Shown here in pieces: positions 9,001 to 12,000 of a stretch of 13,028 bases of DNA. The stretch comes from a virus (lineage: Duplodnaviria; Heunggongvirae; Uroviricota; Caudoviricetes): positions 1 through 13,028 of IMG/VR virus record IMGVR_UViG_2734482780_000013. One strand, 5' to 3'. Made by a program: the position numbers. Position 1 is the first letter of the stretch; every line of letters starts with the position of its first letter.

Positions 9001-12000
9001 GCTGTTTAGAATCTTGCCAATGGCTTGGTTGTCATCACTTTTGGCTATAGTTGTAATATTGTATTATACAGGGCTTCCATCTGATTTTATTCAGAAGTAT
9101 CAGAACTATTTGTATTGGTTTGACGGTGGGTTTACGAATATAAGACCAGATATAAACGGGATGATTAACTCAAGATATGTAACTGCTGGAGTTACATGGA
9201 CTCTTGTGTGGGAGTGGGGGTTTTATTTCATTCTTCCTTTGCTTTACTTATTTAGAGAAAAATCGTTAGAGTTCATCTCAGCCATTACTTTTTTATCCAT
9301 GTATTTTGTACCATCATTTTTCCCAGATGCCAAAGCAAACTTATGGGCGGCTTTTTGTTTTGGTATGTTGGTGAAAGAAATAACATTGCTGGTGAAAATA
9401 ACAAAATTGCAATCAGAAATTTTGTTGGTTGCATCAATATTAAGCATTATTATACTTTCACCAGGCACTCTTAGCACAAAGCTCATATTTGTTTCAGCGA
9501 TAGGTTTCTTTGCTGTATGCTCAGGTGCCGATCTATTTGGTCTATTTAGAACCAAGGGATTTATAAGGCTTGGAGAGGCTAGTTACAGTATATATCTACT
9601 TCAGGGGGTGATTTTTTATGTCGCTTTTAAAGTAATGAAAGAAAACAACCTTCCTATGAGTGGTGGTATTTTTTATCTTCAGCTAACTATTGTCTTTATA
9701 TTTCTTTGTGTTGTGTCATGTTTAACCTTCCATTTTTTTGAAAGGTATTTTATTAACATTGCAGCAAACAAACATAATTAATATGATGGCGCTCAATGCG
9801 CCATCTTTTTATTGTTATCCCTAAACCACCTCCTGGGGAGGTAGTCTTTTGCTTGATTAACTTTAATCCATATATGGTTTATTGTGTATGATAAACTCAC
9901 CAACTAAGGAGGGTCTTATGCACATTAAACGGTGGTTTTTATGTCAGCTCAGCTAACAGATGGGGCTTTAAATCAGTGGCTTAGTATGAGTTCTCTTGCT
10001 GCGGTTATCGTAGGCGTTCCGCCAGAGGTTGCGCTCGGTGCTTTGTCAGGAGCGGTGATTTTTGTTACCTCTGCTGTCGAGTATCCGATCCGCCGCCGGG
10101 TGCTCCTGTCTATTCTCAGCTTTCTTTGCGGCCTTCTCTTTTACAAACCAGCAGCATCGATTCTTATCGGCATAGCCAGCCTGATCCCTACCATCACACA
10201 GGACTCTTTCGAGAAAGGGATCGTCTTTTCTGCAGGAGCATTCGTATCGGCGATTGTCGCTGTACGTATTGGTATATGGCTCTACCATCGTTCAGATAAT
10301 CCACGTGAGTTAATTCCGGGGAGAAAAGACAATGGTAACTCATGAGCTTTTTTTGCTTATTGCCAATGCGATTATTTGTTCGGGAATAGCAATTCGCGTT
10401 GTCACATTCCGGCGTAATGGCTCTCAACACCGAAGATGGGGGGGCTGGCTTGCTTATTTCCTTATTGTTGCTGCGGCCAGTATTCCTGTTCGTGTCGTCT
10501 ATGCAATCTGGTTATGCACGCCAATGGCTGTGGATTTACCTGAGGTCATTATCAACGCTGTTATGCTTGCTGCTGTTATTAAAACACGCGGTAACGTTGT
10601 TCAGATTTTCAAAATATCGAGGTCTAAACATGGAGATTAAACAATTCCAGCGAGCTGCTGGTATCAGCGAGGCGCTGGCCGCACGCTGGTTCTTGCATAT
10701 AACTTCTGCGATGAAAGAGTTTGGTATCAGCAACCCCGAAGATCAGGCAATGTTTATTGCTATGGTCGGGCATGAGTCTGGAGGCTTCACCCGGTTGCAG
10801 GAGAATTTCAACTACAGCGTTACCGGGCTGGCCAACTTCGTTCGTGCTGGGCGTCTCACCCAAGGGCAGGCTAATGCATTGGGACGCCGTGCTGGTGAAC
10901 CACCATTGCCACTTGAGCGACAGCGCGCGATCGCAAATCTGGTGTATAGCAAACGCATGGGGAACAATGCTCCCGGTGATGGTTGGAATTACCGTGGGCG
11001 CGGACTTATCCAGATTACCGGTTTGAATAACTATCGTGACTGCGGAAACGGCCTGAAAGTGGACCTGCTGGAGAATCCTGAGCTGTTGACGCAAGACGAA
11101 TACGCGGCTCGTAGCGCGGCGTGGTTCTTCTCCAGCAAAGGCTGCATGAAGTATCCCGGCGATATTGCACGTGTAACTTTGATTATCAATGGTGGCAGGA
11201 ATGGCATCGACGACCGGCGCACGCGGTACGTCACTGCCAGTAAGGTGCTGGCGGCATGATCTGGGCATTCGTAAAAGCATACCGGAAACAGTTGATTATC
11301 ATGGCGGTGCTTGCTGTTCTGGTCATATCAGGAGTTGTTGCCTGGAATGTACACGGCAGTCGTCAGTACGACGCCGGGTATGCGCAGGCGAAAGAAGACC
11401 GCAAAACCGAAGATGAGAGAGTTCGTCATCACTACGAACAGGAGAAAGCGATCAATGAACGTGAAGCGCAGCAGAGGATCGACCAGGCGCGCAATGATGC
11501 TCTTGATGCTGCCGCTCGCGCTGGCCGGTTGCAGCAACAGCTCGTTGCCATCCGTGAGCAGCTCAGGCAGTATAACGCCATTGTCGGCGCTGGGACGTCA
11601 GCCGCAGACACCGGAGTTTTGCTTGCCGACGTGCTCAGTAAATCTCTCGAGAGAAACAGACAACTGGCAGAGTATGCTGACAGGGCTGTCGAAGCCGGAA
11701 GAGTCTGCGAAAAACAGTACGACACCCTGACCAGATAGCATGGCATTTTTCATGGTACTGATTTTCGGTGACGGTATATAAAACGGTACGGGAAAAATTT
11801 GGTTTTGGAAAAATGTTATCACTCAATTGGTTATGATTGTCGTAAATAATTGAGTGGGAATGATTTTAATCCCTGCACTATGAATGAACAAAACCCTCTG
11901 TTACTACAGAGGGTTTTTTATCTTCAAGAATCATAGGCTTGAAGTTACTAACATCGATTAATTAAACCAGCTGTCCGATTTGTTCTCTTCTGCTTTGCCC

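Follow-up and report, generated by a model that had tools for sequence, protein, structure and literature searches.

The lysis cassette of a truncated Escherichia coli prophage: a probable Uetakevirus lysis module with a widespread two-gene holin arrangement

We analysed the lysis cassette contained in a 13,028-bp stretch of DNA from a tailed virus (IMG/VR record IMGVR_UViG_2734482780_000013, positions 1 to 13,028, Caudoviricetes), which is called the window in the following. Very probably this cassette represents the native, already known lysis module of Uetakevirus, the genus of epsilon15, phiV10 and SPN1S, which comprises fully functional phages. The region 9868-11738 would thus be the late lysis operon of a Uetakevirus prophage located between guaA and yfgI of E. 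coli. It encodes two small membrane proteins (here named h1 and h2), an endolysin of glycoside hydrolase family 19 (GH19) and a pair of spanins. As the prophage around the cassette has lost about 25 kb, special attention was paid to the question of whether the intact state of the lysis genes requires an explanation by selection.

The initial annotation had described three open reading frames (ORFs), and these exist as described, judged by a six-frame ORF list and by translation: h1 (9941-10345, 134 amino acids), h2 (10332-10640, 102 amino acids) and the endolysin (10630-11259, 209 amino acids), all on the plus strand. For the endolysin the ORF list opens at a TTG further upstream, and the true start is the ATG at 10630. 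While the coordinates given for the cassette hold up to the end of the endolysin gene, the spanin genes that follow at 11256-11738 had been omitted. The i-spanin Rz (11256-11738, plus strand, 160 amino acids) carries an N-terminal transmembrane (TM) segment at residues 8-35. The o-spanin Rz1 (11455-11730, plus strand, 91 amino acids) is a lipoprotein with the lipobox LALAGC, encoded in the +1 frame inside Rz and at the same position as p30a of phiV10; an Rz with an N-terminal TM segment and a lipoprotein in the +1 frame are the characteristics of an embedded two-component spanin. Neighboring genes overlap throughout the cassette, namely by 14 nt (h1/h2), 11 nt (h2/endolysin) and 4 nt (endolysin/Rz, ATGA). 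Antisense ORFs over the cassette, the largest of which comprises 218 amino acids (10624-11280, minus strand), were dismissed, as they have no PHROG match.

Profile searches agree with these assignments. The protein h1 belongs to PF16931 (Phage_holin_8, 41.6 bits at a cut-off of 26.4) and to phrog_198, labelled ‘holin’ (E 9e-40). For h2 the match to PF05449 (Phage_holin_3_7, formerly DUF754) reaches 95.3 bits at a cut-off of 25.4 and covers positions 2-80 of the 80 profile positions; its best PHROG is phrog_217, again a ‘holin’ (E 3.7e-34). The endolysin is assigned to PF00182 (GH19, 34.3 bits, cut-off 25.5) and phrog_181 (E 3e-89), Rz to DUF2514 (141 bits) and phrog_312 (E 1e-57), and Rz1, which has no Pfam match, to phrog_11621, ‘Rz-like spanin’ (E 6.5e-39). 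None of the five lysis proteins matched an NCBIfam model, and neither Rfam at gathering thresholds nor ARAGORN reported anything within the window.

That the endolysin is of the GH19 type and not lambda-like, as had been proposed, is confirmed by PF00182 and by its similarity to the crystallised endolysin of SPN1S (PDB 4OK7; E 4e-115, approximately 88% identity over 208 amino acids). Glu49 and Glu58 lie inside a motif that is identical to the one of the SPN1S endolysin. The same structural subfamily includes PaGH19Lys (9EOI; E 6e-32), an N-acetylmuramidase of Pseudomonas aeruginosa with the proposed catalytic pair E51/E60, which was assigned by comparison with SPN1S (PMC12329726); Glu49 and Glu58 are the equivalents of these two residues. 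No signal sequence or signal-arrest-release (SAR) sequence was found in the endolysin, and no window of 19 residues reaches a Kyte-Doolittle value of 1.5. The enzyme is therefore predicted to be soluble and holin-dependent. The lack of a hydrophobic N-terminus argues for a holin that forms large holes and not for a pinholin.

The relationship to Uetakevirus is evident on several levels. A megablast search with positions 9800-11900 against phage genomes returned 26 records with a query coverage of 80% or more, among them TL-2011b (90% identity), phiV10 (88.6%), epsilon15 (82.8%) and SPN1S (81.7%). On the protein level h1 is 91% identical to both gp23 of epsilon15 and p27 of phiV10. The same five genes occur in the same order and with the same overlaps in epsilon15 (gp23-gp26/Rz1), phiV10 (p27-p30a) and SPN1S, at 82-92% nucleotide identity, and the maps of phiV10 and epsilon15 place them, as in the window, between the tailspike or serotype-conversion genes and attP/int. 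The conserved leader and the mini-ORF upstream of h1, both discussed below, are also common to the window, phiV10 and epsilon15. The early-region gene set is likewise typical of Uetakevirus (MT-A70, PerC, RecT, repressor, DnaT-like). In contrast to these phages, the window holds a prophage that lacks about 25 kb, and its adjacent conversion gene is a different one, an acyltransferase gene on the plus strand.

To judge the constraint on the individual genes we calculated the ratio of nonsynonymous to synonymous substitution rates (dN/dS) by the method of Nei and Gojobori across the Uetakevirus lineage. The values are 0.06-0.13 for h1, 0.07-0.14 for h2 and 0.07-0.12 for the endolysin. Across the lineage, purifying selection acts on h1 and h2 with the same strength as on the endolysin. 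For Rz the ratio is higher (0.24-0.45), and its dS of 0.07-0.40 is far below that of the three upstream genes. Both deviations are expected from the double coding constraint that the embedded Rz1 frame imposes. The prophages AF56 and FG31-1 carry a different Rz allele of 165 amino acids.

The two membrane proteins are holin-class lysis proteins. The suggestion that they form a holin/antiholin pair or a holin plus a second membrane protein was sound and corresponds to existing annotation: the record notes of the Klebsiella phage Pylas (gp75/gp76) speak of an ‘antiholin paired with adjacent holin’, and for the Burkholderia phages KS5, KS14 and KL3 a ‘putative antiholin’ and a ‘DUF754 holin’ were described as a pair by Lynch et al. 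2010 (PMC3091744). The additional claim that the pair is atypical does not hold, as it represents a widespread two-gene module that is native to the functional phages epsilon15, phiV10 and SPN1S. By tblastn, homologues of h2 were found in 230 phage records, and h1 was detectable in 36. PF05449 homologues are spread over phages of Escherichia, Salmonella, Klebsiella, Pseudomonas, Ralstonia, Burkholderia, Vibrio, Shewanella and Aeromonas.

We sampled ten distant phages that possess h2, namely Pseudomonas D3, the P2-like Ralstonia RSY1, the lambdoid HK639, the N4-like Klebsiella Pylas, Pectobacterium MA12, Klebsiella KPN U2874, Shewanella M16-3, Vibrio Pm34, the Stx2e phage P27 and Aeromonas LPM4. 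All ten, which include sipho-, myo-, podo- and N4-like phages, have a PF16931 gene directly upstream of the PF05449 gene. The upstream proteins measure 122-144 amino acids and score 59-120 bits against PF16931; an alignment of h1 with four distant homologues gave 21-28% identity. If the Burkholderia phages, whose upstream proteins were compared by annotation and not by profile, are regarded together with D3, RSY1, HK639, Pylas, P27 and others, the common pattern is a multi-TM protein of 113-144 amino acids upstream of a PF05449 holin with three TM segments and 88-113 amino acids, mostly followed by an endolysin and then by Rz/Rz1. The neighboring endolysins in the sample fall into four families: GH19, as in the window, and, in contrast to it, the PF11860 muramidases, GH24 and M15_4 (one has no family match, and that of D3 was not scanned). 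This distribution indicates that the holin pair behaves as one unit in evolution and is exchanged between different endolysin backgrounds. The module is common and has apparently never been dissected experimentally, and its annotation bears on all carriers.

With respect to topology the case of h2 is the simpler one. It has three clear hydrophobic segments (residues ~1-27, 37-63 and 64-85), in line with the count given before, and it combines a strongly basic loop 1 with an acidic loop 2 and a basic C-terminal tail, a pattern that is kept in 12 homologues. From hydropathy and charge distribution we predict a class I-type topology with the N-terminus outside and the C-terminus inside. In this predicted arrangement (three TM segments with N-out and C-in and a basic tail) h2 resembles S105/S107, the class I holin-antiholin of lambda, a phage that also has a soluble endolysin and embedded Rz/Rz1, although there is no sequence relationship between the two holins and the dual-start motif of lambda is missing here. 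A lambda-type dual start was rejected for h2, which has a single possible start, and also for h1, as the in-frame GTG at 9932 (three codons upstream, MVFM) adds no charge and belongs to the Shine-Dalgarno sequence GGTGG. Any regulator in the cassette would instead be the product of a separate gene, h1, as is the case with Y/LysA of P2.

The topology of h1 is less clear. Three strongly hydrophobic segments are conserved in the family (residues ~30-47, 53-67 and 92-115), the first of which is followed by a basic loop (IRRR). The N-terminal helix is weakly hydrophobic and rich in Gly, Ala, Ser and Thr. Residues 70-84 are hydrophobic as well, a lineage-specific feature, with charged residues at this place in D3. 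Depending on how the segments are counted, h1 possesses three to five TM segments, so that the earlier estimate of about four is defensible. The positive-inside rule allows three segments (N-out/C-in) or, via the N-terminal helix, four (N-in/C-in), and in the annotation of phiV10, epsilon15 and Pylas the h1-type protein is predicted to have three. Single-sequence AlphaFold2 models, which served for helix boundaries only, gave five helices and a predicted local distance difference test (pLDDT) value of 54 for h1, and a value of 56 for h2.

We propose the following course of lysis. The holin h2 would accumulate in the inner membrane, trigger and form large holes. The co-inherited h1, made just upstream from an overlapping gene, would most likely act as an antiholin-like timing regulator and less likely as a co-subunit of the hole. 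The GH19 muramidase, devoid of a secretion signal, could then escape through the holes and cut the glycan strands, whereupon the Rz/Rz1 spanin complex would disrupt the outer membrane.

Hints towards the control of the operon arise from its leader. At 9868-9880 (plus strand) we found the palindrome CCATATATGGTTT, also written CCATATATGG, followed by the −10-like element TATGAT at 9887-9892. The window, phiV10, epsilon15 and a Klebsiella phage have an almost unchanged leader of approximately 60 nt in common. In the whole 39-kb genome of phiV10 the motif CCATATRTGG(TTT) has only two sites, one before the tail-fibre gene and one before the lysis cassette, each at a distance of approximately 75 nt; in the sequence labelled L001 (labels beginning with L are our own) the copies lie at 2188-2200 and 6006-6018. 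This restriction to two sites suggests a phage-specific promoter or operator, and the palindrome together with TATGAT is a candidate for such an element of the lysis operon. Of the two copies, the window retains that of the lysis genes and has lost that of the tail-fibre gene through deletion. A generic sigma-70 scan called no promoter before the cassette.

Between leader and h1 lies a mini-ORF of 12 codons (MHIKRWFLCQLS, 9918-9956, plus strand) with the consensus Shine-Dalgarno sequence TAAGGAGG at a spacing of 5 nt. Its ATG is located 23 nt upstream of the h1 ATG and out of frame, and it ends 16 nt into h1, the own Shine-Dalgarno sequence of which is weak (GGTGG). The ATG and the strong Shine-Dalgarno sequence are kept in the window (its leader equals that of L008), phiV10, epsilon15, Klebsiella ST11-OXA245phi3.2, AF56 and FG31-1. 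The mini-ORF is absent where the leader is replaced, as in AST205, with a weak Shine-Dalgarno sequence for h1, and in GPEC403, with a good one of its own. The mini-ORF may serve translational coupling to h1. Upstream of the operon, between the acyltransferase gene and the lysis genes, a strong terminator-like hairpin is present at 9785-9805 on the plus strand (eight-pair stem with six G-C pairs, then a T run).

The statement that the prophage is cryptic and has lost its replication and morphogenesis genes is borne out by a deletion junction at about 6085-6090. Here a DnaT-like replication gene breaks off at codon ~37 and the sequence continues ~15-20 nt before the tailspike ATG (6102), with a short microhomology of the CTATC type at the join; homology to full-length prophages ends at 6087-6090 from the left and begins at 6085 on the right, with the tailspike leader. 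To the left of 6087-6090 the sequence shares 98-99% identity with the early part of full-length prophages, which contains an MT-A70 methylase, a DndB-like protein, PerC, RecT, a YqaJ nuclease, a repressor, a cro-like gene and the start of the DnaT-like gene. The junction points are 28.9 kb apart in strain PSS-13 compared to 3.8 kb in the window, so that ~25 kb are missing. Projected onto the map of phiV10 the missing segment spans ~26.5 kb and includes most replication genes, the ‘transcriptional regulator’ p55, a homologue of epsilon15 p49, and all morphogenesis genes but the tailspike. In our reading the ~25 kb were lost by a microhomology-mediated deletion, and with them went the larger part of the replication region, the candidate late regulator (the equivalent of phiV10 p55) and all head and tail genes except the tailspike. 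Given the loss of this regulator and the terminator at 9785-9805, which separates the cassette from the early operon, we consider the cassette in the remnant to be probably silent or at most weakly expressed.

In seven of the eight complete E. coli genomes in which both arms could be located the arms are 29-31 kb apart, which points to full-length prophages. For E. coli P15-25 (NZ_CP080233.1, 3671341-3691549) the distance from cro/DnaT to the cassette is 17.5 kb, and this may be another partly deleted prophage. The right prophage end (attR side) is found at 11739-11866, where phage homology stops at ~11865/11866, 128 bp past the Rz stop, and the host gene yfgI is next. In L002 yfgI and yfgH are annotated, and in related genomes guaA and the integrase lie on the other side.

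An exact-protein look-up yielded both assemblies with the same junction and full-length prophages, and the following statements apply to the matches listed. A strain with this remnant is, for example, the source of assembly GCA_016671405.1. L015 has the same junction and matches the window at 99.992% identity over the full 13,028 bp; L010 shares the junction and is without a second, 533-bp deletion that is present in the window. In several full-length prophages the right arm is 99.4-99.7% identical to the window. Over the 1901-bp cassette there are no differences from L010 and L015 and two to four substitutions relative to the full-length prophages L009, L011, L013 and L014. A check of 5,426 complete E. 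coli genomes gave no case of this exact junction. The near-identity to the cassettes of full-length prophages, in combination with the rarity of the junction, indicates a young and clone-specific deletion. The apparently full-length prophage L017 (GCA_051217735.1) shows a 1-bp deletion beside a G7 run in h2 at ~10505, which corresponds to window position 10445, and no h2 is called there; either the prophage is defective in lysis or the homopolymer caused a sequencing error.

Under these circumstances an intact cassette is the neutral expectation. It is accounted for by the very recent date of the deletion and by the position of the cassette, which is the final module ahead of attR, and no selection has to be invoked. 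It is no surprise to meet a textbook operon of holin, endolysin and spanin genes from a well-sequenced phage genus in a prophage that was truncated so recently, and its presence matters little for the locus. The initial annotation had taken the intactness as a sign of selection; with 0-4 differences in 1901 positions from full-length prophages there was almost no time for decay, and this argument falls away. Purifying selection on the remnant branch would have to be judged from 0-4 substitutions, which are too few to measure it.

Several readings of the role of h1 were weighed. Within our explanation a timing regulator has about an even chance, while h1 as a redundant second holin is unlikely. 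A two-component holin, in which h1 and h2 are obligate subunits and both are needed for the hole, is a tentative possibility; known examples of such holins are gp24.1/gp26 of SPP1 and XhlA/XhlB in Bacillus phages. It would account for the strict adjacency in all ten distant phages whatever the endolysin type, for the equal purifying selection on h1 and h2, for the overlap of both genes, which are probably translationally coupled, and for the label ‘holin’ given to both proteins by Pfam and PHROG alike. On the other hand h2 alone has all hallmarks of a self-sufficient class I-type holin, and curators of related phages name the upstream gene an antiholin, albeit by inference only. We regard it as improbable that this idea can be carried further, in the sense that Phage_holin_8 and Phage_holin_3_7 form an obligate two-protein holin, the Gly/Ala/Ser/Thr-rich helix of h1 acts as a SAR-like timing switch that exits the membrane, the mini-ORF tunes the h1:h2 ratio, and loss of the repressor might fire lysis without virions, with the cassette now ~3.8 kb from the early rightward operon. 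That h1 is an unrelated inner-membrane protein, e.g. a superinfection-exclusion or conversion factor, and merely a neighbor of the holin, is hardly credible. The records of phiV10 and epsilon15 say only ‘membrane protein’, and h1 lies just downstream of serotype-conversion genes; against this stand the holin family match above the cut-off, the overlap of the gene with the start of h2, and the invariable location in the lysis operon directly upstream of PF05449, even in virulent N4-like and in P2-like phages with no conversion genes nearby.

A number of points weigh against the preferred explanation, in which h2 is the holin, h1 its regulator and the cassette a neutral leftover. The co-conservation in ten out of ten phages together with equal purifying selection exceeds what is usual for dispensable antiholins, and a two-subunit holin fits about as well. 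No experiment on any PF16931/PF05449 pair or on either family was found in the searchable literature, and which protein is the holin and which the regulator we infer from annotation practice and topology. Three literature leads proved to lie outside the two families: the holin of Xanthomonas X2 has 75 amino acids and two TM segments; gp62/gp63 of phage N4, the subject of a recent study, are a pinholin with one TM segment and a regulator with two, and are thus built differently from the pair of the N4-like Pylas; and the mention of DUF754 in a preprint on CRISPR Cap1 turned out to be a false match. The low-confidence AlphaFold2 models (pLDDT 54-56) leave h1 at three or four TM segments. Furthermore, four other independently truncated prophages (AST205, AF56, FG31-1 and L012) keep h1, h2, endolysin and Rz intact, and five independent truncated prophages with an intact cassette could hint at retention, although the sample is biased. 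This last point leads to the idea that the cassette was domesticated, i.e. kept by selection because lysis of a subpopulation (explosive lysis, release of vesicles, extracellular DNA or toxins) benefits the host clone, which we consider very improbable. Besides the five independently truncated prophages, which share the site and have all four genes intact, it could draw on the observation that the 533-bp deletion struck recT and an alpA-like gene and left the cassette untouched, and that the large deletion brings the cassette to ~3.8 kb downstream of the early rightward operon. However, the remnants were found by a query with the cassette or with the whole window, an ascertainment bias due to which they are not countable as evidence of retention. 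Apart from what the second deletion removed, the remaining genes of the remnant are intact too, just 0-4 bases separate the cassette from that of full-length prophages, and the absence of the junction from the 5,426 complete genomes marks a young event of one clone. In addition, the terminator at 9785-9805 stands between the cassette and upstream transcription and the candidate late regulator lay in the deleted region.

Precedents for a host function of such cassettes come from elsewhere. In the R/F-pyocin cluster of P. aeruginosa the GH19 enzyme Lys (PA0629) acts with Hol, AlpB and CidA in explosive cell lysis (PMC12329726). Like the window, this is a GH19 muramidase in a defective phage-derived element, but the pyocin element is ancient, species-fixed and of demonstrated host function (PMC12329726), whereas the present remnant is young and clone-specific, with a host use not in evidence. 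The lysis module of the defective prophage DLP12 of E. coli K-12 (essD-ybcS-rzpD/rzoD) modulates vesicle production (PMC7918800). DLP12 likewise contains an intact holin-endolysin-spanin operon in a defective prophage, so that retention as such is not unusual; it is, however, lambdoid (S/R-type), old and experimentally tied to vesicles, and its proteins are unrelated to those encoded in the window. The proposal of explosive lysis or vesicle release thus has precedents in other systems only, and nothing found here backs it for this locus.

Further observations concern the remainder of the prophage. At the junction a DnaT-like stub of 48 amino acids (5978-6124) runs into the tailspike leader, and the intact tailspike gene (6069-8573, real start 6102) with its Shine-Dalgarno sequence now lies directly downstream of the early rightward operon (cro-like gene at 5381-5611). 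The C-terminal two thirds of the tailspike (6772-8580) are 95-97% identical to P22-type tailspikes annotated as ‘phage head-binding domain-containing’ in two unrelated E. coli genomes, and the N-terminal ~170 codons correspond to the Uetakevirus adaptor; the receptor-binding module has been exchanged between podovirus types. The second deletion of 533 bp is located at 2363-2368 relative to the otherwise near-identical L010. It removes a gene of 82 amino acids at the position where related prophages have an AlpA-family gene (a possible excisionase) as well as the last ~86 codons of recT (257 amino acids compared to 340 in L010), which is a sign of continuing decay and perhaps the loss of the ability to excise. 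The acyltransferase gene (Acyl_transf_3, 8645-9781, plus strand, 378 amino acids; phrog_3333, O-acetyltransferase) has a low GC content of 32-36% and is followed by a bidirectional terminator. It fills the serotype-conversion slot, but it is not the oac gene of phiV10, and it lies on the other strand. Within the left early operon, at 192-1939 on the minus strand, an MT-A70 methyltransferase gene is followed by a gene for a DndB-like/DGQHR protein of 367 amino acids, again with a low GC content (36-40%). Only a part of the related prophages carry the DndB-like gene, which may therefore be a defence or anti-defence moron.

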